A program made the translations under genes and the position numbers. Shown here piece by piece: positions 31,872 to 53,767 of a DNA stretch of 64,000 nt. Within the stretch, counting starts at the first letter, position 1. Every line of letters starts with the position of its first letter. The notes beneath the pieces are model-generated. The model worked only from the letters and a program-made list of their open reading frames with translations, was not told the DNA's origin and searched no databases. The DNA lies in the IMG/VR virus record IMGVR_UViG_3300037183_000141, positions 12,464-76,463 of that record; one strand, written 5' to 3'. The DNA is from a virus. Lineage: Duplodnaviria; Caudoviricetes.

Positions 31872-32299
31872 CTACTCGTTCATCACGGTCTCGAGCGCGA
31901 ACTCTTCCGGAGTGGCAGGACGGAACTTGACCAGCATTCTCTTGACCGTCCTCCCCCAGCTGTCCCAGTGCCTTGCCCAGACAACGATGTGGAGGGAGTG
32001 GAGGACGGTCTTCCTCTCCCCGTCCCCGAAGTTCTCGTGGCCGACGTCCCACACGAACATCCCTGGCTCCACTTCGTGCTTGCCGTGCTCGACCATCACC
32101 TTCCGGTCCTTGCACTGACCGACCAGGTTGTTGATCCCGAACCTCTGCTGTCTCTCGTAATAATGGAGCGTTACCTGCCTCTGGACTGCCTTCCTCACCG
32201 CTCCCCTTCCCTGCGGGCCGAGATGGTGCCGAAGATCGAGCTCGCGTACCACCCTATTCCGGAAACGAACAAATAGTTCATCTTGTACTGTGTGTTCAT
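31872..32299 (-). CDS. Hypothetical protein with C-terminal VMNE tag
   Basis: Probable ATG 32299. Confidence 0.55.
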
Positions 32300-33158
32300 G
32301 ATAGACATTCATGAAGTCGCTAGACTTTACGGAATGGGTCTTACTCAGGAAGAGGTGGCCGTCCGTCTCAGGTGCCACGTAAACTCAGTGAGAAGACTCA
32401 TGAAGTCCCTTGGCCTCAAAGTGCGCCCGAAAAGCCGTATCTACGGACTCAATGAATCGTTCTTCGAGACGATAGACTCAGAAGAAAAAGCATACTGGCT
32501 CGGCTTCGCCTTGGCCGATGGATCAATAAAGAAAACCAAGTATGGAACCCCATGCTCTTTGGTCGTCGGCCTGAGCTCGGTAGACTCGCATCATCTTGAA
32601 TCGCTCAAGACAGCCCTCAGATACACAGGACCTGTGAAGACAATAAACTACTTCGACAAGAGGTACGGGAAATGGTACAGACGAAGTCAGCTGGAACCAT
32701 CAAGCAGAAAGCTTTGTTCTGACTTACTCGACAAGGGCTGGGACGACTTCAAAAGAAAAGGTTATATCAGAATATTAGGAGAAGTTTTGGAAAAATTTAT
32801 GTCAGCTCTCCTACGGGGTCTCGTTGACGGGGATGGGTGTTTATTGCTGAATAAATATGGATCAAAGACAATAACTCTTTTTCATTTCACAGATCTTCAT
32901 CAGTCGGTTGTTGAATGGGTTGCCGTTCGGGTTAAGGAGCAACTACACATACCGATTCCAAAGTTTTTGAAAAATGGGAACGGGACAAGAAAAGGTTTCC
33001 ATATACGATATGCAAGACATGAACATGTTCGAGCTATAGCTCGTTTTCTTTACTCCGGACCTCCTAGCCTGGAAAGAAAACAGACTGTCGCCGATAGATT
33101 ATCGTCCGCTGTCTTTTTTCATCCAGGTTGTCGAAAAAGTGGATGCATAGAACCATAG
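32298..33158 (+). CDS. Free-standing double-motif LAGLIDADG homing endonuclease with N-terminal HTH
   Basis: AYWLGFALADGSI and LRGLVDGDGCL; AT-rich; opposite strand to its flanks. Confidence 0.85.
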   Translation: MIDIHEVARLYGMGLTQEEVAVRLRCHVNSVRRLMKSLGLKVRPKSRIYGLNESFFETIDSEEKAYWLGFALADGSIKKTKYGTPCSLVVGLSSVDSHHLESLKTALRYTGPVKTINYFDKRYGKWYRRSQLEPSSRKLCSDLLDKGWDDFKRKGYIRILGEVLEKFMSALLRGLVDGDGCLLLNKYGSKTITLFHFTDLHQSVVEWVAVRVKEQLHIPIPKFLKNGNGTRKGFHIRYARHEHVRAIARFLYSGPPSLERKQTVADRLSSAVFFHPGCRKSGCIEP

Positions 33159-33821
33159 GCAGAGGTCGACGATCCCGAGCGGCATCTCCGCGGGCTTCAT
33201 CGCCAGGCACATCGCGTCGCAGTCCTTGAACCACCAGTGGTCGGCCAAGCGCACGAGGTGGAGGTCGGGCTTCACGCACTCGAGGATGCCGATGTTTCGG
33301 GCGAGGTGTTTGCACGTGATCTTCCCGACGTACGGGAGCTTCGTCAGAAGCTCGGGGGAGGAGAGCCGGCGCTGGCGGAAGTCCTCCCACGACTCCGTCC
33401 TCCCGACGTCGGCCGGGAACATAGCGCCCGCCATGAGCTTCGCGGTCGAGTGGACGGCCTTCGCCTTCTGCGGGTTGTTGCAGACCTTCAGGACCCGGGA
33501 GAGCATTAGGTCCTCGTCCTCCCTGCCAAGCCTATCCCACCCGCTCCCGTCCTCTCCGATACCGTAGGCGGCGGTGAGCCTCGGCATCAGCTTCGCCACG
33601 ACCTTAGAGTTGAAGCCGGTGGCATGGATCACCCACGTCAGCTCAAGGAAGAAGTGGTTCGGGCCGACCTCCTCGAACTTCGTGGACCAGATATGGTCCA
33701 TCTCCCTTCGGTAGTGCTTCTCCGTGAACGCTCGCGCCTTCCGGAAATACTCTTCTGGCGAGTCGGACGGCGTCGGCCCATCGGCCATCTCTTCGGAGGT
33801 CAGATCTCTCCTCGGCTCCAT
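33099..33821 (-). CDS. HhH-GPD-like DNA glycosylase
   Basis: LTKLPYVGKITCKHL HhH followed by VKPDLHLVR. Confidence 0.6.
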   Translation of the reverse strand: MEPRRDLTSEEMADGPTPSDSPEEYFRKARAFTEKHYRREMDHIWSTKFEEVGPNHFFLELTWVIHATGFNSKVVAKLMPRLTAAYGIGEDGSGWDRLGREDEDLMLSRVLKVCNNPQKAKAVHSTAKLMAGAMFPADVGRTESWEDFRQRRLSSPELLTKLPYVGKITCKHLARNIGILECVKPDLHLVRLADHWWFKDCDAMCLAMKPAEMPLGIVDLCLWFYASTFSTTWMKKDSGR

Positions 33822-33836
33822 GGGCCAAGATTACGC

Positions 33837-34079
33837 TCAGGCGGCCCGCGAAGGCGAATCGGACGCCGAGAACTGGAACGTGACGCACTCGTCGTCCGAC
33901 CAATCTTGGCTCGACATGACGTACGGGCTCTGATCGCGGCTCCAACAGGCGAAGCAAAAAGTCCTGACTCGGCCGCAAGACGAGTACCTTCGGACGAGGC
34001 ACCCATCGTCTCCGCACTCGGTGCAGGTCCCACGCTCTGGTTCCCAGAGGATGTCCATAATGTTGTTCCCAATATTCAT
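33837..34079 (-). CDS. Small Cys-rich protein
   Basis: CTEC..C..C..CFAC. Confidence 0.5.
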   Translation of the reverse strand: MNIGNNIMDILWEPERGTCTECGDDGCLVRRYSSCGRVRTFCFACWSRDQSPYVMSSQDWSDDECVTFQFSASDSPSRAA

Positions 34080-34221
34080 AGGAGGGCCCTCCCTCTCGTC
34101 GGTTGGCCTCTTTTGAAGCACGACTCTGCACTCTCCGTGCCGGACGGGCCTGAAGTTCCGAGGGCTGCAAGGCGGGAAGATTGTGGCGTCCGCCGACGCA
34201 CACGATGGCAGGCTGCCGCAG

Positions 34222-34398
34222 TCAGCGCTTGGCGGTCGCCATCTCGCTCAGTGTCCTCATGACGTCGACTGCGGCCTTGCCGGCGGTCGCGGGCCTCAGG
34301 CCGTTCCTGCGCTTCACCTCGCCGGAGACCATGTCCAGGAGATCGAGGAGCTCGCCGTCCTGGAGCGTCCCGAGGTCGGCGGCGGTTGGCATCTGCAT
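34222..34398 (-). CDS. Small hypothetical protein (58 aa)
   Basis: Not in the track; MQMPTAADLGTLQDGELLDLLDMVSGEVKRRNG.., high GC3. Confidence 0.5.
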   Translation of the reverse strand: MQMPTAADLGTLQDGELLDLLDMVSGEVKRRNGLRPATAGKAAVDVMRTLSEMATAKR

Positions 34399-35124: not shown

Positions 35125-35171
35125 GACGGGGATCGGGCATGAAAGGCTCGGAGTGTAACTATCCGGGCCGG

Positions 35172-35633
35172 ATGACATCCTTCAACGCCTACTATAGCAA
35201 CATAAGCGCGGTGAACTCGTTCGTCCGACAGCATCTCCCGTCCGTCGAATGGCTGGTGTCGACCCGGGACGAGGACCGTGGGACCGGGAGGACCACGGCG
35301 CTCGCCCTCGCTTTCCTTCGGAACTCCTTCTCCTCAGCGCACCCGACAAGGGCCTTCGACCACGCCGATGGAGGCGGGTTCGACTCAAAACAATGGATCA
35401 AGATGAAGCTCCAGGAGATGTCGCCCGGCCTCTTCATCGGACAGGACGGGACCCTGGAGAGCCAGCCGGCGTACGCCGCCAGCCCGTCGAGCCCACAGTT
35501 CAACGACACCCTCTTGAAGGTCCGGCAAGACTTCATGAGCGTGGTCACTTCCGCCGTAAGACTCGGGGTCGACCCGACCTGGATGATGAAGCAGCTCCAG
35601 AACGCCCTGGCCGAGTCGGTGATGAACACATGA
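35172..35633 (+). CDS. Hypothetical protein with C-terminal VMNT tag
   Basis: Contains RGTGRTT (P-loop-like remnant). Confidence 0.55.
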   Translation: MTSFNAYYSNISAVNSFVRQHLPSVEWLVSTRDEDRGTGRTTALALAFLRNSFSSAHPTRAFDHADGGGFDSKQWIKMKLQEMSPGLFIGQDGTLESQPAYAASPSSPQFNDTLLKVRQDFMSVVTSAVRLGVDPTWMMKQLQNALAESVMNT

Positions 35634-36182: not shown

Positions 36183-36656
36183 ATGGCGAAGGAGATAGAG
36201 CGGCGTTTTCTGGTGTCGGACTCGGTCAGGGAGCAGGCCCTCGGGAGGAAGACGGATATCGTCCAGGGGTATCTGTCGGCCGAGCCGGCGGTGCGCGTCC
36301 GACTGGTCGGCGGCTTCCTAGGGCAGAAGGGCTACCTGACGGTCAAAGGGCCCGGCTCCCTGAGCCGGCCGGAGTTCGAGTACGAGATCCCGGCCCTCGA
36401 CGCGAAGGAGATGCTCGCCCTCTGCAGGTTCAGCCTCGAGAAGGAAAGGCGGCACGTCCTCGTGTCAGGACACATGTGGTCTGTCGACTTTTTCACCGAG
36501 GCGAGGATGAACGGTCTCATGTTGGCCGAGATCGAGCTCAAGAGCGAGGACGAAAAGTTCGTGATGCCGGACTGGGCTGGCGAGGAGGTTACCGAGAACC
36601 CATACTATTCGAACGTCTCGCTGGCGAAGATAGGGGCGCTGGTCAGGACTCCATGA
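36183..36656 (+). CDS. CYTH/triphosphate tunnel metalloenzyme
   Basis: EIERRFLV, IVQGYL, VRVR, LTVKG, EFEYEI, LAEIEL, YYSN. Confidence 0.9.
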   Translation: MAKEIERRFLVSDSVREQALGRKTDIVQGYLSAEPAVRVRLVGGFLGQKGYLTVKGPGSLSRPEFEYEIPALDAKEMLALCRFSLEKERRHVLVSGHMWSVDFFTEARMNGLMLAEIELKSEDEKFVMPDWAGEEVTENPYYSNVSLAKIGALVRTP

Positions 36657-37206
36657 CCTCAAGGAGGATGCGACGATCCCAGCACTCGCGGACCTTCTCC
36701 GTGCTGATGCGACGGGAGACGTGAGCGTTATACGCTATCGACATGTTCGTGATGTGAATGGCGATGCAGCAGCCGAGGACGGAGTCGAGGATGCCCTTTG
36801 CGTCATCCGTGTATGCCTTCGTCAGTCTTTCGTCCCGTCCCCCGTCTCTCTTTTCGCAGTGAAGCCGGTCCACTCGCGAAAGCGGCATTAGGCCCTCGTG
36901 GTTGACGATAGCGGTCGTGATGATCCAGTTGGCGACCTGGATCGGGCTTGCCGCGGTCATGTTCCCCTCGTCCGTCCCAGTAATCTGGTTCTTCGAGCGG
37001 CTGTACCGGAAATGTTTAGTGAACGACGAGTTGTTGTGCGGGTGTCCATGCCGACGGAGTGGGCCCCTCGTCGACCTGAGCTCGATTTGGGACATTATCT
37101 GCCCGCCGCCAACGTTCTTGGCCTCGACGTCGACCACAAGGTCTCCGAGCTCCTGCTGCATGAGGATGACCTGGTCTTTTTCGGGGTGGATCCAGCTCGT
37201 GTCCAT
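36643..37206 (-). CDS. Hypothetical protein with C-terminal VMES tag
   Basis: 187 aa, high GC3. Confidence 0.55.
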   Translation of the reverse strand: MDTSWIHPEKDQVILMQQELGDLVVDVEAKNVGGGQIMSQIELRSTRGPLRRHGHPHNNSSFTKHFRYSRSKNQITGTDEGNMTAASPIQVANWIITTAIVNHEGLMPLSRVDRLHCEKRDGGRDERLTKAYTDDAKGILDSVLGCCIAIHITNMSIAYNAHVSRRISTEKVRECWDRRILLEVMES

Positions 37207-37260: not shown

Positions 37261-38199
37261 ATGTCGTATTCTCTAAAGCAATTCATGGTGTGCATTTCCG
37301 GGTACTCCGGCTCCGGGAAGGACGAGTTCGCCCGGATATTCGCGGACGAGATGCAAGCGCCGAAGGTCGGCCTGGCGGACCCGGCGAAACGCCATATGGC
37401 GGACCTCTACGGGTTCACCGAAGACCAGCTCTTCGGCCCAAGCGCCTCCCGAAACGCCGGCGACCTCCGGTATCCGAAGCCGAGCTTCACGTCCTCCGGG
37501 CTGTGCATTTCCAGCGCGACCGCGGAGGAGCCCCCGGCGGAGCTCAGGGGAGAGCTGAAGCCGGGCGTCCCGTACTGGGAGATGAGCTCTAGGAAGGTGA
37601 CGCCGGAGGCACACGAGGCCGTCCGAAAGCTTCCGTTCGTCCTCGGGCAGCTCGGGGACGCGACCGTCTACGTCCCGGAGGGGCACCCGTCGTTCTGGCT
37701 CTCCCCGAGGGAGAGCCTGCAGCTCTACTGCGAGCTCATGAACACCCTGTACAGGGACACCTGGATCCGGAAGTCAGTGCACACGCACATGCGGCTCGGC
37801 GGGACCACCGAGATCGCCGGGCACCGCTTCATGTCGTTCACCTACGACAGGATGTTCGGCCTCATGGTCCCGAGCCCCGACAAGCTAATCCCGGCCCCGG
37901 AGGACGGCGGGACGTTCTTCTCGTGCTCGGCCGACTTCAGGCATAGGCACGAGTTCAACCTGGCCAGAAAGATGAGGACGGACGACTTCATCCCGGTCAT
38001 GGTCCGCGTGAAGAGGCCGAGCGTGCCCGTGCCGCCCTTCGACCATCGGTCGGAGACGGAGCAGGCGACCATCCCGGACGGGTTCTTCGACTTCGTCGTG
38101 GACAACGACAAGACGGTGGAGGACCTGCACGATCAGGCGAGGGAGATCATCAAGACTGTCCAGATCCCGGGCTGGCGGCCGCTCCGGGGGTCGCTGTGA
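37261..38199 (+). CDS. Phage deoxynucleoside monophosphate kinase
   Basis: ISGYSGSGKD, ADPAK, SPRESLQ, DFRHRHE, HRSE, VVDND. Confidence 0.75.
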   Translation: MSYSLKQFMVCISGYSGSGKDEFARIFADEMQAPKVGLADPAKRHMADLYGFTEDQLFGPSASRNAGDLRYPKPSFTSSGLCISSATAEEPPAELRGELKPGVPYWEMSSRKVTPEAHEAVRKLPFVLGQLGDATVYVPEGHPSFWLSPRESLQLYCELMNTLYRDTWIRKSVHTHMRLGGTTEIAGHRFMSFTYDRMFGLMVPSPDKLIPAPEDGGTFFSCSADFRHRHEFNLARKMRTDDFIPVMVRVKRPSVPVPPFDHRSETEQATIPDGFFDFVVDNDKTVEDLHDQAREIIKTVQIPGWRPLRGSL

Positions 38200-39152
38200 A
38201 GCCCACGGTCGATCAGCTGATGGAGGTCGACACCATCCTCAGCCACAGCTTCTGCCCGGACGGAACGGCGTCCGCGATGATCTGCCTCGCCGCCTACGGC
38301 GCTGTGGGGAGGACGCCGGAGGTCAAGATGGTGATGTACGACACCGTCGACCATAGCGCCGCGCCGGCGGCCCCGAAACAGCTGTGGGCGGACATCACCC
38401 CGCCGATAGCCAGATGGCAGGACTGGGCTGGGATGAGCCCGATCGTGCTCGACCATCACGAGACGGCGATGCCGGTGGTCGAGGGCCTCGGGGGCGTCTA
38501 CGGAGGGCTCGACGACAGCGGGGCCAGCCTGGCGTTCAAGAACGTCATGCGAGTCCTCTCTCGCGACCGGGACGACATCGAAGAATGGGCGAAGTTCGCC
38601 CATCTCGCCATGATCCGGGACACGTGGAAGGACGCCCACGAGGACTGGGAGGAGGGGCTCGCGGTCGGCGAGGCGCTCAACTTCTACACGCAGAAGGCGC
38701 TCTTCATCTCCTCCTCCGAGGGGAAGATGAACGTGAACGAGATGATCCGGTTCGGCAAGGTCCTCGTCCAGAAGACCGCGAACAAGGCGTTCAAGCTCGC
38801 CCAGGGCACGACGTTCGTGGAAGCCGGAGGCCTGAAGTACGGGTTCTTCAACTGCACGGAGAAGGCGGTGTCCGAGACCGGGCATGCCCTGCTCGAGAAG
38901 CACGGGTGCAACGTCGCGGCCGGCTTCTTCTTCACCCAGGAGGGCGGGACGACCAACCTGTGCGTCTCCCTCCGGTCGAAGAAGGGCGAGGTCCCCGTCA
39001 ACAAGATCGCCGAGAAGTTCGGCGGAGGAGGGCATCAGCCCGCGGCCGGCTTCCGGCTGAAGGACGCCGGGGAGATCAGCCTGAACGGGCTGATCAAGAT
39101 CGTCCTCGGCGCCGCCGAGGTGGTCTTCGCGCAGGCGGTGATGGAGACGTAG
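38196..39152 (+). CDS. DHH/DHHA1 phosphoesterase with C-terminal VMET tag
   Basis: SHSFCPDG, LDHHET, SLRS, FGGGGHQPAAG. Confidence 0.85.
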   Translation: MKPTVDQLMEVDTILSHSFCPDGTASAMICLAAYGAVGRTPEVKMVMYDTVDHSAAPAAPKQLWADITPPIARWQDWAGMSPIVLDHHETAMPVVEGLGGVYGGLDDSGASLAFKNVMRVLSRDRDDIEEWAKFAHLAMIRDTWKDAHEDWEEGLAVGEALNFYTQKALFISSSEGKMNVNEMIRFGKVLVQKTANKAFKLAQGTTFVEAGGLKYGFFNCTEKAVSETGHALLEKHGCNVAAGFFFTQEGGTTNLCVSLRSKKGEVPVNKIAEKFGGGGHQPAAGFRLKDAGEISLNGLIKIVLGAAEVVFAQAVMET

Positions 39153-39202
39153 GCTCTTTGTCGGGCGTGAGTCCGATGACCACGGGTGTAAGAGTATCCG
39201 CC

Positions 39203-39985
39203 ATGACGCCCCTGTCCGACGTGAAGGCCTACTTCCGGGGCAAGGGCTTGGAGGGTCACTGGAGCGGGGACTCGTTCGAGGGCTCGGTCTCCGTCGTCGA
39301 CGTCAAGATCAAGCCCTCGGGGAAGTCGTACTCGGTCAAGATCGAGTCCGTCGACGACCCCTCCGACTCCGACGAGGTGACGACCGGCGAGCCGCTCAAG
39401 GCCATCGCGGACTTCCTGGGACAGGACATCCCGGGCGGCGAGCACTTCGAGAAGATGTCTTCCTTCCCGTCGTTCTTCGCCCACTCTATCGCCATGGCGG
39501 CCGAGCTCGTGGGCGCCGGGATGGTCGGCAGGCGCGCTGCCGTCCGCATGCTGCGCCGCCTATCCTCGTTCCGTCCCGTCGCCGACTCGCAGCCTCAGCG
39601 CCCCGGGACCGACCTCTCGGAGCTCGAGAAGGATGCCCGGAGGAAGGGCTGGAAGGCGAAGCTGAACAAGGACGGGTACGGGGACGACGTCCTCGAGATC
39701 GACGTCTCCGGCATCTACAAGGCCGAGGTCACGCTCGACGCCATCATGTACGACTACAAGTTCGAGCTCCGCGGCGAGTCCAGCGTGGACGAGAAGGGGT
39801 CGACCGACGACCCGATCCGCGACTTCGAGAAGTGGGCGGCCAGGTCGGACGTCAAGGAGGCGCTCGAGAGGGCGCAGTCCGCGGGCCGCGACCAGCACAC
39901 GGTCCAGGCTCCCGCCGAGCCGCCGAAGAAGAAGGCGCCCCAGGCGCCGACCCGCCGTGCCCCGGCAGAAGAGCCGCTCTCGTAG
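39203..39985 (+). CDS. Hypothetical protein with an internal domain duplication
   Basis: LSDVKAYFRGKG..TTGEPLKAI and LSELEKDARRKG..STDDPIRDF. Confidence 0.6.
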   Translation: MTPLSDVKAYFRGKGLEGHWSGDSFEGSVSVVDVKIKPSGKSYSVKIESVDDPSDSDEVTTGEPLKAIADFLGQDIPGGEHFEKMSSFPSFFAHSIAMAAELVGAGMVGRRAAVRMLRRLSSFRPVADSQPQRPGTDLSELEKDARRKGWKAKLNKDGYGDDVLEIDVSGIYKAEVTLDAIMYDYKFELRGESSVDEKGSTDDPIRDFEKWAARSDVKEALERAQSAGRDQHTVQAPAEPPKKKAPQAPTRRAPAEEPLS

Positions 39986-40014: not shown

Positions 40015-40401
40015 ATGCCACAGTCTTCCATCACAGAGAGCGGGTTCGCGGAGGTCCAGGTGTCCCCGACGGAGGCCCAGCTCCTCCTGGGCATGATGAA
40101 GGCCCGCATCCGGCGCCTCTCTCACCTGGACTCCGCCGGGCCCGACGTGTTCGCCGAGGTGTCCCGGCTGGCCCGCATGTGCTTCGTCCTCTCCAGCGGG
40201 AAGCCGGGCGACTGGGTGACCATCCGGCGCATGTCGAAGGAGGACGTGGAGGCCGTCTACGTCCTGAACCTGGGTCAGGAGACCGAGAGGCTCCTCGCCG
40301 CCCTGAACAACGTTCGGCAGAGGGTGCGGCAGACTGGGCCGGTCGACCTGGACGTCTCCGACCAGGCCGCCAAGTCCGTGATCGAGGTGATGGAGACCTA
40401 G
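40015..40401 (+). CDS. Hypothetical protein with C-terminal VMET tag
   Basis: ATG 40015 preceded by the AGGTC-N15-TA motif. Confidence 0.6.
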   Translation: MPQSSITESGFAEVQVSPTEAQLLLGMMKARIRRLSHLDSAGPDVFAEVSRLARMCFVLSSGKPGDWVTIRRMSKEDVEAVYVLNLGQETERLLAALNNVRQRVRQTGPVDLDVSDQAAKSVIEVMET

Positions 40402-41321
40402 GGGAGAATGTGGACGTTCCAATGTTGCAGTATATATTGGAACACCATGGCTAGTGTCGTGACGACGAAGATTGGGACGGTGACCTTTCGCGACAGCCCC
40501 TTTCCGGACTTGGACGCCTGAAGCTCGATGGCTTTCACGGCGGTCTCCGTCGTTTTCTTGACATGGTTTTCGTAGGTTTTCAGACGCTCTTCGTGGACAA
40601 TGTCGGCTCGGATGAGGCGGAGGATTTCGGTCGTCGCCTCCGAGCTCTGCTCTTCGAAGGCGTCGAATTTCTCGAAATGGCTTTGCATATCCTCCTTCGT
40701 TGCGTACTTCCGGATCTCCTGTTGCGTCGCGAGCGAAGCGTTTTTCGCGGCGATGGCGTCGGCCGAGGCGGCGAGGGCCGCCTGCTCGGCCTTCTCGAGG
40801 CTTTTCTGAACGGCCCACATATCCCGGTCGACGCGAGCGATCTGGTCTCCGACCCACTTCTCGAGGTCGCCTATACGTCCTTCAAGGTCGGCCTGACTGT
40901 TCGCCATATCGACCTGCATCGACATGAACGAAAACTCCGGCCCCGACTGCGGTGTGTCCTGAATGTGGTCCGCGTAGGCCCAGCGCCGTGAGTCCGAAGT
41001 CCGGACCTTGAACACGTACCACCAGGCCACCTTGCCCTCGACGGTCTTCGTCGGAAATATATGGCGCCGCGTTTTCTCCGGGTCTTCCTCGGTCAAATCC
41101 TCCCGGATTTGGTCATGGAAGCGCTCCGGCGACACGTCGAAGACGGACATCGACGCAAGCTGCTCCTCGGTGCAGCCCATTATCTTGAGCGCAAACTCGT
41201 TAACCCACTCTATGGAGCCGGAGGAAGTATCGACCTCGAAGACACCACGTTCCTTCATATCCTTTCCGAGCTTTCGGCCCTCAAGTACCCCCGGATCATG
41301 GTTCTGCTTCTGTTTCAGCAT
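40398..41321 (-). CDS. PAS domain, coiled coil and C-terminal membrane anchor
   Basis: IEWVNEFALKIMGCTEEQLASMSVFDVSPE (PAS); tail VTVPIFVVTTLAMVFQYIL. Confidence 0.65.
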   Translation of the reverse strand: MLKQKQNHDPGVLEGRKLGKDMKERGVFEVDTSSGSIEWVNEFALKIMGCTEEQLASMSVFDVSPERFHDQIREDLTEEDPEKTRRHIFPTKTVEGKVAWWYVFKVRTSDSRRWAYADHIQDTPQSGPEFSFMSMQVDMANSQADLEGRIGDLEKWVGDQIARVDRDMWAVQKSLEKAEQAALAASADAIAAKNASLATQQEIRKYATKEDMQSHFEKFDAFEEQSSEATTEILRLIRADIVHEERLKTYENHVKKTTETAVKAIELQASKSGKGLSRKVTVPIFVVTTLAMVFQYILQHWNVHILP

Positions 41322-41384: not shown

Positions 41385-41756
41385 ATGCCGCCCTCGAACG
41401 CTCTATCCCTTCATTGTTCAAAATGTAAGATATCCGAAACCTGCCCGAGAAGGGGATCGAGTCCCCTCCAAAAGGGTGGTCGGTCCCTCCCACTATTATG
41501 TCGTATTGTCGGAGGATACGCAACGAGGCCCATCGACCTAGAACGACTGTCGGACGATGGGAAGGCCCGGGCGGCCAAGGACGGACCGTGCATGAGCATC
41601 GTCGAGGTCCCGACCGTCGAGCCGTCAGGCCATGTCCACTTCGAGATGGTAAAAGTCTTCCACCATGCCATCGTCCACCCCCGGTCGACGACGACGCTCC
41701 AGGCGGACGCCATGCTGACGCGCTCTCACAGGCAGGAACGCCCGACCCGGAGCTAG
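41385..41756 (+). CDS. Hypothetical Cys-containing protein
   Basis: 123 aa; CSKC..C. Confidence 0.45.
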   Translation: MPPSNALSLHCSKCKISETCPRRGSSPLQKGGRSLPLLCRIVGGYATRPIDLERLSDDGKARAAKDGPCMSIVEVPTVEPSGHVHFEMVKVFHHAIVHPRSTTTLQADAMLTRSHRQERPTRS

Positions 41757-42037
41757 GAAGTCAGGACATGGTGGGCCAGAACGAACTCCCTGGCCCCCTC
41801 GATGACAGACTGAATCTCCGCCTCCCGCGACTTCCAGTCGAAATACCACTTACGGATTGACCCGTCCGTCATGATGAGGCACACGACGGAAGTGTTCATG
41901 TCCACGATTTTAGTCCGGAGAAGATAGCTTTTCCAACCCTTCCGGAAGACAGCCCCGTGAATATAGAAGTGGCCGACCCTGGGGATGGTCCTCTCCCACT
42001 CGATCTTCGATCCGGGAGGTGCAGGCCTGGGAGTCAT
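41753..42037 (-). CDS. Hypothetical protein with C-terminal VLTS tag
   Basis: Probable ATG 42037. Confidence 0.5.
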   Translation of the reverse strand: MTPRPAPPGSKIEWERTIPRVGHFYIHGAVFRKGWKSYLLRTKIVDMNTSVVCLIMTDGSIRKWYFDWKSREAEIQSVIEGAREFVLAHHVLTS

Positions 42038-43074: not shown

Positions 43075-43623
43075 ATGACGATACAGGAGGCCACGCTGGA
43101 GGAAATTAGATCGGTCATAAGGCCGGATAAGAAGAGCCTTTTACGCTGCAAGGCAGGAAGGCCGAGGAGGATAGAGACGGTCTTCCCGGCGAACGCGCTT
43201 CTCGTCTCGAAGACTCACATCCACCTGGCGAACTGGCTGGCCGCGTGGGAGTTCGACCCGACCCCGGAGCTGGAAGGCGCGATCCAAGACGGGATGTCCT
43301 ATGTGTTCAGGGCCGCGTGGACGTCCGAGACGTACGAGTTCAATGGGTGCACATACCTGTCCATGGAGCAGATATTCGACCCCGACACGGACAGATATCG
43401 TTTCCATCCACTGTGTAAACCGTCGTACGACGGGCACAGACACAGGTGGAACGGCCATAACGGAAAGCTTGAGGTCCTGTGCGAGACCAGCTCCGGGGCG
43501 ACGGGAGAGAAAATGCTGAAGCTGATGAAGGACCGATCGTTCCTGCTGAAGCGAAGCGGCCGCGACGCCGGGACCTACAGACTCCCAAGGGGGTGTTACT
43601 CCTGGGAGGAGAAGACTCTCTAA
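43075..43623 (+). CDS. Hypothetical protein
   Basis: 182 aa, GCGTA-N10-ATG start context. Confidence 0.55.
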   Translation: MTIQEATLEEIRSVIRPDKKSLLRCKAGRPRRIETVFPANALLVSKTHIHLANWLAAWEFDPTPELEGAIQDGMSYVFRAAWTSETYEFNGCTYLSMEQIFDPDTDRYRFHPLCKPSYDGHRHRWNGHNGKLEVLCETSSGATGEKMLKLMKDRSFLLKRSGRDAGTYRLPRGCYSWEEKTL

Positions 43624-43898
43624 GCCTTTCCGCCCTGGGTTAGAGTCACCATCGGTCCGGCGAGAAGGGTGAGGGGGCCGTCCTTTCCGGGGGCGGCCGG
43701 GATCTCGATACCCTGACGGGCGATCTCCGCGATAAGGGACACCACACGGGGGAGCTCGCCCATCGAAGAGCGGGCCAGAAGGACAGCAAGGTCGTCCTCA
43801 CCCGCCCTCACGACGTCCTTCCACAGGTCTTCCCAGCCGGCGAGAGCCGCCTGCGGGGAGTCCGATGGAACCCTGGCGACGCAGATTACGACCTTCAC
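43620..43898 (-). CDS. Hypothetical protein
   Basis: 92 aa. Confidence 0.5.
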   Translation of the reverse strand: MKVVICVARVPSDSPQAALAGWEDLWKDVVRAGEDDLAVLLARSSMGELPRVVSLIAEIARQGIEIPAAPGKDGPLTLLAGPMVTLTQGGKA

Positions 43899-43909: not shown

Positions 43910-44302
43910 TCAGGACAGTGAAGAGGATGTCGTCCCCTGGCCGAAGACCGTCCCCCAGCTCACGGCCGTGTCCTCATTCCGGAAGCCGAGCCTCCGGAGT
44001 ATCTCGCACATAGCCCAGGCGTCGACGAGGTGCCTCGGGTGGCGCATGAGGTCGGCTACCCCGGTCCCGACCCTCTTCCGAAGCTCCACGAGCTCCATCC
44101 CGTCGGCCAGGACTAGGGCCGTGGCGAGGTCGTCGTTCACGTCGAAGGAACGGCGCTGGACGACGGACTCCGGGAGCGCCCCGTGGATCCGAAGCCCCTC
44201 TACGAGGGGAAGGATGGGGACCATCTTCCTCTCGGTCAGGATTTCCTTCGTCAGGTCGAGGATCTGGTCTAGCGCCATTCCGGACATTACGTTAACGCTC
44301 AC
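43910..44302 (-). CDS. Hypothetical protein
   Basis: 130 aa; GTGA overlap with the upstream gene. Confidence 0.55.
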   Translation of the reverse strand: MSVNVMSGMALDQILDLTKEILTERKMVPILPLVEGLRIHGALPESVVQRRSFDVNDDLATALVLADGMELVELRKRVGTGVADLMRHPRHLVDAWAMCEILRRLGFRNEDTAVSWGTVFGQGTTSSSLS

Positions 44303-44832
44303 GTGTCCATGACCTCCTTAGCAAACCGTAAGGCCACCAGGTAGGCGAGGGCCTTGAGGGACGATATGCAGGCCCTGGCGACGGCGGCCTGCTTTTCCTC
44401 CGGGTTCTTCGACGCCGCGGCCTCCATATACCTGGCCAGGCACTCCTTTCCCATCTCCCTCCAGTCGCAGTCGATCCCGGTCCCCCGGAACCCATCTGGG
44501 CCGAACATCTTCGTCCTCGTAAAGTCCTTATAGGGGTCGAAGACCTCCAGCGACATCAGGGACAGGACAATGTCGAAGGCCTCCTTGAAGTTCCCGGGGA
44601 CATAGGCCTGGTACTCCGGGAGCGCCAGGAGCTCCCAGTCGTCAGCGAGCATGTCCCGGGACTCGAGCTGGGACGACGGCCACGTGTGCTCGGAGGACCC
44701 GGCCTTCATGGTGAAGTGATCGGACCGGACACCGGCTATGAGCTCGACGGTAATATGGTGTCCGGCCGGCCAGGGCCTCCTGCGGGCCCTCCGTCCGGCG
44801 CGGAGCGCAGGAAGGGCGTCCTCTATCTTCAT
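44299..44832 (-). CDS. DUF2829 (Tad2-like) domain fused to an unknown helical domain; VMDT tag
   Basis: MKIEDALPALRAGRRARRRPW..W..SRDMLADDWELL. Confidence 0.65.
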   Translation of the reverse strand: MKIEDALPALRAGRRARRRPWPAGHHITVELIAGVRSDHFTMKAGSSEHTWPSSQLESRDMLADDWELLALPEYQAYVPGNFKEAFDIVLSLMSLEVFDPYKDFTRTKMFGPDGFRGTGIDCDWREMGKECLARYMEAAASKNPEEKQAAVARACISSLKALAYLVALRFAKEVMDT

Positions 44833-44859: not shown

Positions 44860-45264
44860 GTGACCAGAAACTGTCGCCACTGCGGGAAGCCGCTTTTGAA
44901 AGAGAACGCGACGATGGCCGACGGATGCCCCTGTAATTCTGCACGAGGGGTCAACCATGGGATCGTGGACAAGCTTACCTGTACGTGTAATGTCTGCGAC
45001 CCGGCCGGAACCGGCGGATCTCGCCTCAGGTCCACAACGCCGACGATCCGCTCTCTGTCCGACTTCGGGGAAGGAGTTTATGTAGTGTATGGGGTGTGCG
45101 TGTGCGGGCTAGACACGAGCATGCAATGGTCGTACACGATGCCGGACGGGTCCGTCATCCCGAGGTGCGGAAAGTGCGTCCTCAACAGTCAGTCTGAAAG
45201 GCTTGAGAAGATCTCGAAGGAGATGTTCGACTATTTCACGGCCCTCCACGTGATGACCGCGTAG
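44860..45264 (+). CDS. Cys-rich hypothetical protein; VMTA tag
   Basis: CRHC..CPC..CTCNVC..CVC..CGKC. Confidence 0.55.
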   Translation: MTRNCRHCGKPLLKENATMADGCPCNSARGVNHGIVDKLTCTCNVCDPAGTGGSRLRSTTPTIRSLSDFGEGVYVVYGVCVCGLDTSMQWSYTMPDGSVIPRCGKCVLNSQSERLEKISKEMFDYFTALHVMTA

Positions 45265-47558: not shown

Positions 47559-48217
47559 GCCTGGACCGCGCGAGGTTAGTCTCCATATTGGAGACAATCG
47601 AGAAGGACGTCGGTAACTCCCCTGACGAACTGGCTGTCTGCGTCGAGGCGAGGACCGGGGATCCATTCAGGGTCCTTGTGTCCACGCTTCTCTCTCTAAG
47701 AGCTCGGGATGAGGTCACACATATCGTGACCAGGTCCTTGCTTGCGGAAGCACCTGATCCAAAGACTCTTGCTGATCTATCTCAGGAAAAAGTTGTTCAC
47801 TTGATCCGTCAAACAAGTTTTCGGAACACGAAGGCACTTCACCTGCGCGGCATTGCGAAGGACCTGATAGAAAAGCATGACGGGACTGTCCCGGAGACGA
47901 TGGGGGAGCTCTTAGCGCTTAAGGGGATAGGAAGAAAGAGCGCGAACTTGATTTTAAACCTTGGTTTCGGGAAGGGAGGCGTGTGCGTCGATACTCACGT
48001 ATTTTCCCTTTCTAATAGACTCGGTATAGTGAGGGCAAGGACGCCAGCCGAAGCGGAAAAAAATCTTCAGAAGAAACTTCCGCCCGGTTGGTGGATTAAA
48101 GTGAACGGTATTTTCATAGCGTTTGGTCGGAAGACGTGTACGCCGTTCTTACCAAAGTGCTCGAAATGTCCAGTCCATGATAAATGTCCTCAAATCGGGA
48201 TCAATAAACACAGATAA
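47555..48217 (+). CDS. nth: Endonuclease III (HhH-GPD, 4Fe-4S)
   Basis: PFRVLVSTLLS, LKGIGRKSAN, VDTHV, CTPFLPKCSKCPVHDKC; start CTG 47555 or TTG 47588. Confidence 0.9.
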   Translation: MSLDRARLVSILETIEKDVGNSPDELAVCVEARTGDPFRVLVSTLLSLRARDEVTHIVTRSLLAEAPDPKTLADLSQEKVVHLIRQTSFRNTKALHLRGIAKDLIEKHDGTVPETMGELLALKGIGRKSANLILNLGFGKGGVCVDTHVFSLSNRLGIVRARTPAEAEKNLQKKLPPGWWIKVNGIFIAFGRKTCTPFLPKCSKCPVHDKCPQIGINKHR

Positions 48218-49064
48218 CACGTTCGAGTGTTCAAAATGTGGTCCGGTTCCCCTATCTGAGTGCAAGACTTTTCGCTCTAAAAACATCAAGAGCGGATACC
48301 GGACATACTGCGGCCGGTGTTCAAGAGCGAGAAACTCGAAGTCTTACGTCGAAAACAAAGAATCGCATGACCTCGGGACAAAGCTCTGGAGAGGAGCTAA
48401 CCCAGAAGCGTCGAGGCGGATCGGACGAGACTCAAATTCGAGGTGGAGAGAGAAAAATCCGGAGCTAGCCTTGGAGCTAGAACGTCAAAATAACGCCCGG
48501 ACGAAGGACCTCGTCTGTTCCATAAAGTCTCTTGCTAGAGAAAAATATGGCATAAAGTGTCAATGTTGCGGCGAGGCAGAAGATGCCTTCCTGCGTATCG
48601 ATCATGTTGACGGCGGAGGCACACAACATCGTAAGACAGTTGGTATCAACTTTTGGTTTTGGCTCGCCGAAGAAAACTTCCCGTCCGGGTTCCGCACCCT
48701 TTGCCATAACTGCAATATGTCTTACGGGTCGTACGGAGGATGCCCACATCAGCCAGGTTTTGTTTACACGCCGGGCTCTTCTTCCGCCAAGAGCATGAGA
48801 AAAATCAGGACTGAAGTAATACTTGAATACGGGGGTAGATGTTCTTGTTGCAGCGAAAGAATTTACGAGTTCTTGGCTTTAGATCACATTAATGGCGGCG
48901 GTCGAGCCCATCTCAAGAATCTTGGGTTGAAGAGCGGTGGCGTAAATTTGGCCCGATGGGCGCGAAACAACGGATATCCAGATTCACTTCGTGTCCTGTG
49001 TCACAATTGCAATTTCGCCTCAGGACATTCCGGCGCATGTCCGCACTCGACGTTCACCAGGTGA
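48177..49064 (+). CDS. His-Me (HNH/EndoVII-like) endonuclease with two tandem nuclease domains
   Basis: CSKC..CGRC; CQCC..IDHVDGGG..LCHNCN..CPH repeated as CSCC..LDHINGGG..LCHNCN..CPH; low GC. Confidence 0.8.
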   Translation: MINVLKSGSINTDNTFECSKCGPVPLSECKTFRSKNIKSGYRTYCGRCSRARNSKSYVENKESHDLGTKLWRGANPEASRRIGRDSNSRWREKNPELALELERQNNARTKDLVCSIKSLAREKYGIKCQCCGEAEDAFLRIDHVDGGGTQHRKTVGINFWFWLAEENFPSGFRTLCHNCNMSYGSYGGCPHQPGFVYTPGSSSAKSMRKIRTEVILEYGGRCSCCSERIYEFLALDHINGGGRAHLKNLGLKSGGVNLARWARNNGYPDSLRVLCHNCNFASGHSGACPHSTFTR

Positions 49065-50359: not shown

Positions 50360-51259
50360 ATGACTTCCATGAAGGTAGGGGGTTGGCGGCGCGAAGACCA
50401 AAGCAGTAGAGCGGAGAAGATCGCCTCCCAGCCTGACTTCTCGGTCGTGAGGGCGAAGATGGGCTCGTACCTCGCCCCGGGTAGCGAGCCGTCTGACCTC
50501 CGACGGTTCTCCCCGCCGAAGAGGCATAACCAGCTGACGTCGAACTCGTGCGTCGCGAACTCAATGACCAGGGCGCTCGAGAATAAGCGCATCCAGAAGG
50601 CATACTATACGGCCCTGTCGACCGGGACGGCCGACGCCGCGGCGCTCGCGGCGGCGCAGTCCCAGCACGTCGCCCTCTCAAGGCTCGCCCTATACTACCT
50701 CTCCCGCGAGGAGATGAACCCGCCGGAGACGGACAAGGACGGGGGGACGATCATCTCGATAGCCGCCGAGCTCCTCCGGACCTTCGGCGTGTCGCGCGAG
50801 GACCCGGACCCGTCGGACCCGTCCGCGGCGTCATGGCCGTTCGACCTCGCGAAGCTCTTTGTCCCGCCGTCGTGGAAGGCGATGCGCGACGCCGCGGTCC
50901 ACAAGATATCGTCGTGGTCCAGGATCTCGAGCTCCGGGAGCCAGCGCGTTGACGACGTCATCGCGGCGCTCTCGGCCGGAAACGTCGTCGTCTACGGGAC
51001 GCAGGTCGGGAGCAACTGGCAGAAGTACGACGGGAGCTCCGTCATCCAGCCCGTGGTCGGGACCCCAGAGGGGGGCCATGCGACCATGCTGTGCGGCTGG
51101 GACCCCTCCGGGTTCTTCTGGGACGAGAACTCCTGGGACAACAGCTGGGGCGACGACGGGTTCTGCAAGGTCTCGTCCGACGTCGTCGCGAGCGACCAAT
51201 CGTCTGATTTTGTCGTCGTGCAAGGTGGGTGGGAGCCCTGGCACCAGCAGGCGGCGTAA
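50360..51259 (+). CDS. Papain-like cysteine peptidase (C1A)
   Basis: NQLTSNSCVANS, GGHATMLCGW, ENSWDNSWGDDG. Confidence 0.85.
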   Translation: MTSMKVGGWRREDQSSRAEKIASQPDFSVVRAKMGSYLAPGSEPSDLRRFSPPKRHNQLTSNSCVANSMTRALENKRIQKAYYTALSTGTADAAALAAAQSQHVALSRLALYYLSREEMNPPETDKDGGTIISIAAELLRTFGVSREDPDPSDPSAASWPFDLAKLFVPPSWKAMRDAAVHKISSWSRISSSGSQRVDDVIAALSAGNVVVYGTQVGSNWQKYDGSSVIQPVVGTPEGGHATMLCGWDPSGFFWDENSWDNSWGDDGFCKVSSDVVASDQSSDFVVVQGGWEPWHQQAA

Positions 51260-51268
51260 GTTCGCCAA

Positions 51269-51367
51269 ATGGGCGACAACATCCTCCGGTTCCTGCTCGG
51301 AGTCACATTCGGATACTGCATCTGCCTCCTCCTGCACCGGGAGGGATGGCCATGGCGCTGGAGATGA
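51269..51367 (+). CDS. 32-aa membrane peptide
   Basis: Not in the track; MGDNILRFLLGVTFGYCICLLLHREGWPWRWR; GCGTA-N10-ATG. Confidence 0.45.
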   Translation: MGDNILRFLLGVTFGYCICLLLHREGWPWRWR

Positions 51368-51369
51368 TC

Positions 51370-51663
51370 ATGAAGACGTTCTTTCTCGCACTGACACTCT
51401 GCCTCGCCGCATGCGGCCCCGCCGTCGAGCACCCGCACCCGCACCTCCCCACGGACACGCCGCGCTGCCCGGACGCGTGCGCGCACCTGAGGGAGCTGAA
51501 GTGCGACGAGGGGCAGCCTCTCGCTGACGGGACCACCTGCGAGGCCTTCTGCGAGAGCACTCAGACGTCCGGACACGCCCTGATGCCCTCTTGCGTCGTG
51601 AACATCAAGAAGTGCTCGGACATGGACGAGCTCGACTCGTTCTGCCCGAACCCGGCCCCCTAG
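51370..51663 (+). CDS. Cys-rich lipoprotein
   Basis: MKTFFLALTLCLAAC lipobox; 7 further Cys. Confidence 0.7.
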   Translation: MKTFFLALTLCLAACGPAVEHPHPHLPTDTPRCPDACAHLRELKCDEGQPLADGTTCEAFCESTQTSGHALMPSCVVNIKKCSDMDELDSFCPNPAP

Positions 51664-51819
51664 GACGAACCTTCGGCCGCCTTGCGCGTGGCAGCCAGCA
51701 CCCATTCTGAGGGCTTGTAGACGTCATACCCAGAGTATGGTGTCGGCCTCCCCTCTGGGCCGAGGTGTGCAGAGCATGGCCTCCCCTTTCCGAGTATGCA
51801 GGAGGAGCACCAAGCAGGG

Positions 51820-52059
51820 TCAGCGGGGATCATAGTATAGGGCGCGGATCTTCGGTTCGGCGGGACGGGCGGCCTTCACCGGCATTGAGGGCATACGCTG
51901 CGTCGGAGGGCTGTCCGTGAGGTCGTCGACGGCCTGGATCACGCGGTCCAGACGGGCGAGATTACCCTCTCCGAGGGGCATGTTGGAGACCGCCCTGGCG
52001 GCGGCCAAGAGCTCATAGAAAGTGCTCTCCAGTTTCGTCATCACGTTCGGTTTGTCCAT
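51820..52059 (-). CDS. Hypothetical protein
   Basis: ATG 52059 preceded by the AGGTC-N15-TA motif. Confidence 0.55.
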   Translation of the reverse strand: MDKPNVMTKLESTFYELLAAARAVSNMPLGEGNLARLDRVIQAVDDLTDSPPTQRMPSMPVKAARPAEPKIRALYYDPR

Positions 52060-52088
52060 ACTCCCGCCTACGAAGGCCGGGAAAGGAC

Positions 52089-52454
52089 CTACGAGGTTAT
52101 CACGAACGCGGCCAGCGCGTCGGCGCACGAGGCCGGGACCTTGAACTTGAAGTTGTTGAGGGCCTGGATGAGTATCCTGGACACCGTTGTGTTCCTCACG
52201 TAGGCGTTCGGATCCCTGTCGTCGGACGACTTGAACTGTGTCGCCCTCGCGTTCCAACAACACCCGGAGCACCGGACAACGACCGTAGCGTTCACCCCGT
52301 CTATCGAGCGGTCCCCGGTCCTGTTGCCGCTTCTCCCGCTAAACCTCTTGACGTCGGTGAAGGAGACATGGGCCGCCAGGGGACGATGGTCCCCGTGAGA
52401 GAATCCGACGACCTCCAGATCCCGGTCGGCATTCGTCCTCTCCTCAGTTTTCAC
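52089..52454 (-). CDS. Hypothetical protein with C-terminal VITS tag
   Basis: 121 aa. Confidence 0.5.
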   Translation of the reverse strand: MKTEERTNADRDLEVVGFSHGDHRPLAAHVSFTDVKRFSGRSGNRTGDRSIDGVNATVVVRCSGCCWNARATQFKSSDDRDPNAYVRNTTVSRILIQALNNFKFKVPASCADALAAFVITS

Positions 52455-52460
52455 CCGCCG

Positions 52461-52907
52461 TCACCCCTTCATCACGGTAAAAGCCACGGCGTCCCGGACG
52501 ACCGCGCCGAGATCCTCGTGACCGATGCCGGCGTTCACAAGACCGAAGACACAACTCCGGACCGTGTTGGCCAGGATCTGCGGGCCTGAGAGCTCGAACG
52601 TGGAGACGTACTCGAGGGCCTTCGACATCCCGGCCGGCATGTCGAGCTTGACTATCCCCGTCACGAAGGACGGGATGGACTCCGGGTCGTCCGGCCTCCC
52701 GACGACGGAGGGGATCGACATGTTGAACATGCGCTCGTCAGGACCCCTCCCGCCGACGATCGTGATGGCCGCCTTCGGGAGGTGTCCGAAAAGCACGGAG
52801 ACGTCGCCCGTCCCTCCGAACCGCAAGATCTCCCGTATCTCCTGGGCCGCCCGGACGAACCCCGGACGAAGGGCATCGGCGATCGGGTCGACCGTGTCCG
52901 GAGGCAT
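52461..52907 (-). CDS. Hypothetical protein with C-terminal VMKG tag
   Basis: ATG 52907 in a TGATG overlap with the upstream frame. Confidence 0.55.
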   Translation of the reverse strand: MPPDTVDPIADALRPGFVRAAQEIREILRFGGTGDVSVLFGHLPKAAITIVGGRGPDERMFNMSIPSVVGRPDDPESIPSFVTGIVKLDMPAGMSKALEYVSTFELSGPQILANTVRSCVFGLVNAGIGHEDLGAVVRDAVAFTVMKG

Positions 52908-53288
52908 CAGACGAGCTGGTTCGCGAGGAAGACCGCGAAGACGCCGCCGCTGGACGTCACGTAGAACTCGTGGCAGATCACGCCCCCGGCGTCCGCGGCG
53001 GCCTCGGACATCTGGGCCCCGAGCACCTTCGTGTCGACGGGCTCGCCCTCGAACAGCTGCCCCACCTTCACGCTGCTGAGGTTCACCGGCAGGCCGGGCT
53101 CCTGCGTGTAGCCGAGGCTGACAAGGGCGACGCCGTGCGACTCGACGAACTCGACGCCGATGCTGCGCGCACAGACGGTCGGGCCGACGAAGGAGGTGAC
53201 CTGCGAGCGGAGCTCGTCGGTCAGGTTGCCGTCCGCAGAGAGAGGGCCGGAGAAAATTTCGATTCGGGAATGGACTTGGTTTGGACAT
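52907..53288 (-). pseudogene. Coding frame lacking an in-frame canonical start (frameshifted or non-AUG start)
   Basis: About 119 high-GC3 codons (IEIFSGPLSADGNLTDELR..FLANQLV) whose TGA overlaps the next ATG; the nearest ATG (53288) is one frame off. Confidence 0.55.
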
Positions 53289-53308
53289 GCCGACGCTTAC
53301 ACCCGCGC

Positions 53309-53767
53309 TCACGTGCTCATTACGTGGTCGACGAGGGCGAGGTCGACCACGTCGTGGAGGACGGACGAGGAGACGCCCGCGGAGATCAGCGCCTTGAAGA
53401 ACTGCCGGACGCCGAGCGCCAGGCCGCGCGGCCCCTCGTCGACGACGCACTGGAGGCTCGCCCTGATCTGCTCAAGGTTGCTGTCCTCCCTCGGGTCGAG
53501 CTCGAGCTCCATGTCCTTCCCCTGCTCGAGGCCGAGACTCCCGCCCGGCCGGGTGACGAGGTACTGGGCGAAGTAGCTGATCTTCCCGTCGACGTCCTGC
53601 TGGACCACGCGGCACTCGGAGAGCCACTCCGGTATGGACACCGGCAGGTAGTGCGCCACGGCGTCGAACTCGGGCCTCGTCGACATGGACCTGTCCAGGG
53701 CCTCCTGGAACGCCGCGCGCAGCTCCGCCTCCAGCTCGTCCATCTCGCTCACTCCTCTCACCCTCAT
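53309..53767 (-). CDS. Hypothetical protein with C-terminal VMST tag
   Basis: High GC3; GCGTA-N9-ATG. Confidence 0.6.
   Translation of the reverse strand: MRVRGVSEMDELEAELRAAFQEALDRSMSTRPEFDAVAHYLPVSIPEWLSECRVVQQDVDGKISYFAQYLVTRPGGSLGLEQGKDMELELDPREDSNLEQIRASLQCVVDEGPRGLALGVRQFFKALISAGVSSSVLHDVVDLALVDHVMST

Follow-up and report, generated by a model that had tools for sequence, protein, structure and literature searches.

The window analysed here, 64,000 nucleotides of DNA from an uncultured giant phage, comprises bases 12464-76463 of the 76,463-bp IMG/VR virus record IMGVR_UViG_3300037183_000141, and eleven of the genes between its positions 31.8 and 53.8 kb encode proteins that end in a common C-terminal tail of the form V-[M/L/I]-x-x. 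We find that this tail is enriched, selected at the protein level, strictly terminal, portable between proteins and spread throughout a lineage of phages, in whose complete members it looks like an address label on about one gene in five. The eleven endings would be copies of a clade-wide C-terminal tag, formed by the final two to three turns of an amphipathic helix, and the tail is probably a docking helix, anchored at the terminus, that a single partner recognises on all carriers. From these observations we infer both the single reader and its action.

Because high-GC DNA commonly contains long shadow open reading frames (ORFs), genes were called with a self-trained codon-model gene caller. 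All eleven ORFs listed by a first-pass annotation of the window were called as genes, with a GC content of 0.76-0.97 at third codon positions versus 0.34-0.49 at second positions. Their C-termini are independent of start-site choice, as stops are fixed by the sequence, and the eleven stop positions and C-terminal peptides all re-read as listed. The dipeptide VM stands at -4/-3 in 9 of the 107 genes of the 76-kb record (9 of the 95 in the window alone), where dipeptide frequencies predict 0.25 (binomial P 7e-12), and V[MLI] stands there in 12 of the 107 (P 8e-9). Between -2 and -12, no gene of the record has VM at any other offset. As a look-elsewhere control, we swapped the C-termini for random internal 12-mers and took the best count over all dipeptides and offsets: the maximum in 2000 trials was 7, against the 9 observed (P<0.0005), so the motif count is above its null. 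The ending V[MLI]xx is found in 6 of 767 non-gene stop-to-stop frames, which is the background level.

The tail is confined to one part of the window. Between 31.8 and 53.8 kb it is found on 11 of 37 genes, about one third, while no carriers are found at 0-31 kb or 54-64 kb, as the first-pass annotation had noticed for the replication block and the 57-64 kb array. That annotation described a four-residue tag on unrelated proteins. The enrichment of the four residues holds, but the motif is longer, with conserved positions back to -8: hydrophobic at -8, A, L or V at -7, V at -4, M (L once and I once) at -3, polar at -2 and mostly T or S at -1, a spacing that gives a terminal helix one hydrophobic face. 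"Unrelated" is slightly overstated: BLASTP among the eleven carriers matched no pair at E<=0.01, but by direct pairwise comparison the products of 52461-52907 and 53309-53743 have their last 40 residues in common (38% identity, E 0.006).

The spread of the tail became apparent from relatives of the phage. Four syntenic relatives, L002, L003, L005 and L008, were fetched through the DHH phosphoesterase gene of the window. The single DHH protein returned no related loci as a query, and an alignment of its homologues returned 22 IMG/VR loci. The tail occurs at all loci whose DHH protein is >=35% identical to that of the window, and most of the more distant loci lack it. Five of these genomes were fetched whole: the complete tagged relatives G001, G002, G003 and G020 (360-436 kb, G001 being the 436-kb one) and an untagged sister, G005 (73% complete). 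A closer large relative of the window phage, sought among the records searched, gave a distant match only.

Genes ending in [VI]-[M/Q/H]-x-x number 120 of 592 in G001, 78 of 466 in G002, 102 of 533 in G003 and 89 of 524 in G020 (17-20%), where 2-3 are expected per offset and 0-12 are seen at offsets other than -4/-3. The first-pass annotation, right about the existence of the tag, thus underestimated its scale: it is clade-wide, marks about a fifth of the proteome and varies at -3 (M, Q or H, and L, I or V in some lineages). The clade consensus is hydrophobic(-8), [A/V/I](-7), x, x, [V/I](-4), [M, also Q/H/L/I](-3), [E/D/polar](-2), [S/T](-1), COOH. The G001 logo reads I/V/L at -8, V/I at -7, x, E/Q/D at -5, V/I at -4, M at -3, E/D at -2 and S at -1, with E/L at -10; S is found at -1 in 85 of 104 carriers and E or D at -2 in 73 of 104. 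The bodies are almost all unrelated: with the tails removed, BLAST sorts the carriers of G001 (120 in all), G002 and G003 into 117, 73 and 93 clusters. In G001 the full motif occurs 74 times at a terminus and 3 times internally, which indicates that a free C-terminus is part of what is selected.

Each lineage has its own version of the tail. The residue at -3 is almost exclusively M in G001 and a mixture of M, Q and H in G002, G003 and G020, and orthologues exchange M and Q at this position; the lineage of the window favours A at -7 and T at -1. The variant at L016 is V-H-D-L. The variant at L020 has V, I or L at -3 and T or A at -7 and is carried by ~60% of the genes in 20 kb; this array (L020 1-20700, in record G013) is the densest seen, with ends of the form E-I-S-x-D-E-Y-x-T-x-x-[VIL]-[VIL]-N-S. 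Whole carrier sets vary together between lineages, and this is the pattern that a shared reader would produce. The V-[M/Q/H] tail was not found in the sister lineage G005. That genome (loci L072-L089) has an ending of its own on ~20 of 492 proteins, T-A-W-E-x-L-L-D-D-D-like, aromatic and then acidic, for instance at 14636-15148, 304057-304302 and 338244-338465.

That selection acts on the protein and not on the DNA is strongly supported. Orthologues of the carriers in the syntenic relatives are 30-66% identical, compared with 83-97% for the neighbouring enzymes, and 18 of 22 orthologue pairs retain the tail at a median identity of 53%. Within orthologues the valine codon at -4 switches between GTG and GTC and the codons at -7 vary. 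The L003 orthologue of 31872..32198 is 30% identical overall and ends in ETVMRE, with GTG replaced by GTC at -4, and the same replacement is seen in the L002 orthologue of 45085..45264, which ends in MHVMTA. Ten out of ten database homologues of 35139..35633 (55-72% identity), as well as its L005 and L008 orthologues (~30% identity), end in V-[MI]-x-[TSE]. In the family of 40015..40401, whose full-length representatives are as little as 27% identical, 16 of the 19 have [VI]-[MI] at -4/-3 and the rest have LF or TM. Orthologues of 41753..42037 end in HHILTS, HSVMTG and HSVMTG, which shows that L and M interchange at -3. A homologue of 52089..52454 was not found on the fetched relatives. The motif is present across relatives of 39-65% GC, and in G001 the codons at -8, -7, -5 and -2 follow genome-wide synonymous usage.

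Our initial suspicion, a Shine-Dalgarno sequence, was dropped after these codon and context analyses. More generally, a DNA or RNA signal could be the ribosome-binding site of the next gene, part of a phage promoter that overlaps many TAG stops, or a site of recombination where cassettes end. GTGATG and ATGGAG do look like fragments of an extended Shine-Dalgarno sequence, and many genes here stop at TAG and are followed by a conserved promoter-like element. However, synonymous sites are free to vary, so the conservation is not at the DNA level, and the motif persists over the whole GC range; non-gene frames show the pattern only at background level, and the promoter-rich 57-64 kb array is without tails. 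Tails are also present at convergent gene ends: three window carriers (36643, 40401 and 41753) end at convergent junctions, and 36643..37206 has no co-directional gene directly downstream, so the tail there cannot be a ribosome-binding site. An explanation at the nucleotide level is thus largely refuted and very improbable; an integron-like cassette site, a Shine-Dalgarno sequence and a promoter element were each rejected for want of nucleotide-level conservation that includes synonymous sites. The protein-level tag that the first-pass annotation had proposed is borne out by codon turnover, retention in diverging orthologues, the GC range, the strict C-terminal placement and the independent gain by the DHH enzyme described below.

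Two features of G001 depart from this codon neutrality and bear on a different idea, namely that the last 8-12 residues act as a nascent chain in the ribosome at termination, for example through slow release that favours re-initiation in densely packed operons of small genes. The Ser codon at -1 is skewed to TCA (42% vs 15%), so that stop and following start overlap as TCATGA, and there is a modest excess of TGA stops (66% vs 55%). Such a signal would be selected at the level of amino acids, as is seen, and the carriers do lie in dense arrays. We nevertheless regard it as unlikely: the three carriers at convergent ends have nothing to re-initiate, the helical i/i+3/i+4 spacing is what one typically sees in a docking helix that is folded, and we know of no arrest peptides common to a fifth of a proteome.

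The eleven window carriers are listed in Table 1, together with the two genes of G001 that are taken up below as a candidate reader.

Table 1 Tail-carrying genes of the window and two genes of the relative G001 considered as a candidate reader.
Sequence	Coordinates	Strand	Protein	C-terminal residues	Remarks
Window	31872..32198	-	108 aa, no family	ETVMNE	
Window	35139..35633	+	164 aa, no family	ESVMNT	
Window	36643..37206	-	187 aa, no family	LEVMES	Convergent, overlapping CYTH gene 36183-36656
Window	38196..39152	+	DHH/DHHA1 phosphoesterase, 318 aa	QAVMET	Pfam DHHA1 7e-10
Window	40015..40401	+	128 aa, novel fold	IEVMET	Convergent with PAS-domain gene 40398-41321
Window	41753..42037	-	94 aa	HHVLTS	Leu at -3
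Window	44299..44832	-	177 aa, Tad2-like (DUF2829) N-domain and ~110-aa extension	KEVMDT	Pfam Tad2-like 5e-9 over residues 1-68
Window	45085..45264	+	59 aa, two C-x-x-C pairs	LHVMTA	
Window	52089..52454	-	121 aa, Cys-rich	AFVITS	Ile at -3
Window	52461..52907	-	148 aa	FTVMKG	
Window	53309..53743	-	144 aa	DHVMST	Val codon GTA
G001	25892-27001		MoxR-type AAA_5		
G001	29900-31387		DUF2201_N (putative HExxH peptidase) and vWA		

The tail marks small and soluble accessory proteins that evolve fast, and it is not found on structural or replication genes. Their median length is 94 aa, compared with 166 aa for other genes, and none exceeds 400 aa; segments resembling transmembrane helices occur in 0-3% of them versus 7-9% of other genes. 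They sit in arrays (close to the left end of G001, a single 10-kb bin holds 27 genes, of which 22 carry the tail) and are absent from the large-gene blocks at ~190-250 and 290-320 kb of that genome, which we take, from gene size alone, to be structural modules. Cysteine is enriched in carriers (~3% vs 2%). Many of those in G001, G002, G003 and G020 have C at -12 together with D or N at -11, or C-x-x-C just before the tail, a pattern that may represent a metal-binding knuckle in front of the helix. Nine of the eleven window carriers, and likewise ten of the larger carriers in G001, matched no Pfam family, and nine of ten carriers matched no PHROG; 53309..53743 had no family in either. The two annotated carriers, both in the window, are the DHH/DHHA1 phosphoesterase and the Tad2-like domain protein.

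These two proteins show that the tail is portable. The DHH orthologue that is 89% identical to the window protein has the tail, and those that are 87%, 80% and 67% identical are just as long but lack it; of the last eight codons, six are changed. The enzyme thus gained its tail recently and by clustered substitutions, and the gain at unchanged length, which answers the first-pass annotation's call to compare homologues, shows that the tag can be acquired by an existing protein through point substitutions. DHH homologues in distant relatives have their own version of the tail. The Tad2-like protein likewise exists with and without it: the L002 orthologue of 44299..44832 ends in REVMEW, and the L005 orthologue (36% identity) has no tail.

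The portability bears on whether the tail is instead a relic of descent, with all carriers derived from one ancestral small protein whose last helix is the most conserved part and has no function as a tag. Two window carriers do share their last 40 residues, as noted above, and subsets of carriers in G001 and at L020 share a longer ending of ~16 residues. Against this, the DHH enzyme acquired its tail by substitution within a pre-existing C-terminus of unchanged length, a Tad2-like domain protein is also a carrier, and the 120 carriers of G001 form 117 clusters. A single paralogous family was rejected on the same grounds: the eleven window carriers gave no BLASTP match to each other at E<=0.01, with the one C-terminal match of 40 residues noted above, and both DHHA1 and Tad2-like proteins are carriers. 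Common descent is in our view improbable, although the demonstration of unrelated folds so far consists only of DHH versus the model of 40015-40401.

That model, made with AlphaFold2, is confident (predicted local distance difference test, pLDDT, 92.5), and a Foldseek search with it against the PDB gave no match at E<=0.001. The tail ends the last helix, residues 112-127 (pLDDT 80-86), which follows an 11-residue loop. The gene meets the PAS-domain gene on the opposite strand (40398-41321, minus strand) in a 4-nt C-T-A-G overlap. The model of 35139..35633 is poor (pLDDT 57), with a predicted terminal helix-turn-helix.

A helix of this kind could bind other tails, or the body of its own carrier, to give mixed oligomers, a condensate or self-closure of each small protein. 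The hydrophobic residues at -8/-7 and -4/-3 do lie on one helical face, and the helix in the confident model may pack on the core. We consider this unlikely. Self-association leaves unexplained both the exact position four residues from the end and the polar E/D-S/T ending, two helical turns would make a weak zipper, and intramolecular packing is argued against by bodies that are unrelated in sequence.

The polar ending would be accounted for if the tail were a protective cap, an anti-degron that shields small phage proteins from C-terminal proteolysis by the host or from recognition specific to the tail, and recruits nothing. ClpXP acting on ssrA tags, Tsp and FtsH favour non-polar ends, the last residues of the tail are polar or acidic, and the carriers are small and presumably labile. 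A cap, however, needs only the last two or three residues and not V at -4, V/I/A at -7 or a lineage-specific residue at -3, and we give it little credence.

We return to the docking helix as the preferred explanation. One hydrophobic face and a free carboxyl end would dock unlike proteins onto one reader, and this reader would handle the carriers as a class, by regulated unfolding, processing or turnover, or by recruitment to one site. The first-pass annotation had proposed a degron, a docking peptide or a packaging or localisation tag. A protein-level tag stands, and we rank unfolding, processing or turnover and recruitment above packaging into virions, which is disfavoured because the carriers are found in small-gene arrays far from the structural modules of the complete relatives.

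Short terminal addresses on unrelated proteins are known from several systems. The encapsulation peptides of microcompartments and the cargo-loading peptides of encapsulins are short, terminal and portable, often follow a linker, and have a single shell protein as their reader. They are likewise short terminal (amphipathic) helices or peptides on unrelated proteins, but they mark a handful of enzymes, whereas the tag described here is on 80-120 proteins; the sequences are unlike, there is no linked shell gene here, and the carriers are far from the capsid module. The capsid-targeting sequence of the T4 internal proteins sits at the N-terminus of ~ten late proteins, partly anti-defence, and the prohead protease cleaves it off. 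It too is a phage-encoded terminal address on unrelated proteins, whereas the tag here is C-terminal, needs a free end and is absent from structural regions. A T4-type sequence was accordingly rejected, since the N-terminal position and cleavage are lacking and carriers are absent from the large-gene blocks of G001.

The ssrA tag, the C-motifs of ClpX and the clamp-binding tails (T4 gp43, gp33 and gp55; the PIP box) are short, portable C-terminal peptides that one hub reads together with the free end. A tag of the ssrA type finishes with the non-polar pair Ala-Ala, and a clamp motif requires Q and aromatic pairs; V-M-E-S fits neither, and we know of no such tags on a fifth of a proteome. An ssrA-like or ClpX C-motif-1 degron was rejected because it requires a non-polar end (the window tails have T, S, E, G or A at -1 and a polar residue at -2), and the sliding-clamp motifs (QL[SD]LF; PIP box) because the logos have no conserved Q or aromatics at fixed positions. 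A ligand of PDZ domains or tail-specific proteases would need a hydrophobic last residue, and the ends are polar; in the phage genomes searched, PDZ_2 (PF13180) was absent from G001-G004 and Peptidase_S41 (PF03572) from G005-G009.

We wondered which gene products of the tagged phages could be the reader. The leading candidate, as a lead only, is a MoxR-type AAA+ gene together with a gene for a metallopeptidase-vWA protein (Table 1). All four complete tagged genomes co-encode this MoxR AAA+ and vWA pair, as would be expected if the tail were a client peptide. The vWA-peptidase gene is also present in the partial records G009 and G013 and absent from untagged records. In every complete relative both genes lie inside the densest tagged array, and tagged genes make up 34-46% of those lying up to 15 kb to either side of the vWA gene, compared with 17-20% genome-wide. 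The metal-ion-dependent adhesion site (MIDAS) of a vWA domain is the usual contact for an acidic ligand, and the tail offers a conserved E or D at -2 and a terminal carboxylate; by this analogy, and as a lead only, it is a putative acidic ligand for the vWA domain. The vWA-peptidase has no sequence relative in the PDB. vWA domains are described as peptide-binding co-chaperones of MoxR ATPases (PMC7159879). RavA-ViaA, NorQ-NorD, CbbQ-CbbO and the vWA-MoxR conflict systems (PMC7159879) combine MoxR and vWA genes, as do the tagged arrays, but the known pairs serve one or few client complexes, whereas the phage vWA protein adds the putative HExxH peptidase domain (DUF2201_N). The most specific form of the proposal is that the tag is a sorting or turnover code on the scale of the proteome: this machine would capture it and, at a fixed point in the infection, remodel, clip or remove the whole class of small proteins for host takeover and anti-defence, with each lineage co-tuning tag and reader; we put it forward tentatively, as a rather doubtful but concrete possibility.

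A second candidate reader, also a lead only, is an AAA+ protein of 501 aa that is most like the D2 ring of VAT/Cdc48/p97 and has a highly conserved N-domain of 235 residues. It is found in five tagged genomes and zero untagged ones. In an alignment of the G001 protein (L044:1100-2605) and 10 orthologues, the Walker A motif P-P-G-M-A-K-T and the Walker B motif I-E-D-M-D are invariant and unusual, and the arginine fingers (R-P-G-R-F-D) are normal. An atlas search with the N-domain returned only leads below 0.9, some of them relatives with N-terminal ClpX zinc-finger or ClpS domains. A precedent for such a reader is ESCRT-III, whose C-terminal MIM helices dock on the MIT domain of the Vps4 AAA ATPase. 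There, a terminal amphipathic helix is read by an AAA N-domain, and the tagged phages encode a Cdc48/VAT-like AAA with a conserved N-domain; but the tag has no sequence similarity to MIM helices, the phage N-domain is not a recognised MIT domain, and the gene is unlinked to the arrays in three of the four genomes.

Several observations weigh against a single phage-encoded reader. Of the G001 families, 79 recur in both G002 and G003 but not in the untagged G005, and 73 of them are untagged; these have the same distribution, measured against one untagged sister, so presence and absence are weak evidence for either candidate. The untagged comparison genomes are only 58-73% complete. Because the four tagged genomes are syntenic, finding the vWA gene within the array of each amounts to one observation and not four. 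The Cdc48-like protein has its unusual Walker A (G-M-A-K-T) and Walker B motifs and is not among tagged genes in three of the four genomes, and neither candidate is on the 76-kb contig of the window (~18% of the genome). The reader could equally well be a host protein. The data are also compatible with a function that involves no reader, and the explanations without one together carry a substantial minority of the probability, although we still favour the docking helix.

The surroundings of the carriers offer some further observations. CheckV puts the completeness of the 76-kb record at 18%, and the window has a GC content of ~62%. The window encodes a ribonucleotide reductase, an ExoV-like helicase, LigA, a ThyX-like protein and other nucleotide enzymes, and relatives have an adenylosuccinate-synthetase (PurZ-type) gene in the same neighbourhood. 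A megablast search of 31-54 kb against annotated phage records gave zero matches, and a tRNA search of the window found none. After the stop of the DHH gene, the intergenic DNA at 39150-39205 is conserved, also in L002, L003, L005 and L008: from the TAG it continues through G-C-T-C-T-T-T-G-T-C as far as a box, G-T-G-T-A-A-G-A-G, that lies ~8 nt upstream of the following ATG, and similar boxes of the C-G-T-A-A-G type precede other starts. This element is probably a phage-specific promoter and would explain the frequent TAG stops. A scan for sigma-70 promoters in one tagged array and one region of large genes showed no excess over shuffles and hence carries no information on timing. The 549-aa product of 22054-23703 (minus strand) has a weak match to sigma-70 region 4, and G001 encodes a full sigma-70-like factor at 152751-153953. 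On the minus strand, the ORFs 43910-44302 and 43620-43898 together match one 219-aa gene of L002 at 90% identity, so this gene is either split by a frameshift or stop or mis-assembled. The stretch 47600-49060 has a lower GC content (~0.57) and no confident gene call (ORF 48123-49064 has flat codon-position GC); in its place, L002 has an HhH-GPD gene after the 357-aa gene, and the stretch may be a recent insertion.

A literature search found no paper describing such a C-terminal tag. The address peptides known from protein termini each mark a small set of proteins, and in no paper did we find 80-120 labelled proteins in one virus. The presence of a Tad2-like sponge domain and a DHH phosphoesterase among the carriers suggests that the class contains counter-defence factors, and the gain of the tail by the DHH enzyme suggests that an ordinary enzyme can be recruited into the class in this way. 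The tag would serve as a practical classifier of this class of small proteins and as a pull-down handle for grouping hundreds of proteins without annotation. If there is indeed one reader, most of the small genes without annotation in these giant phages would come under a single point of control.

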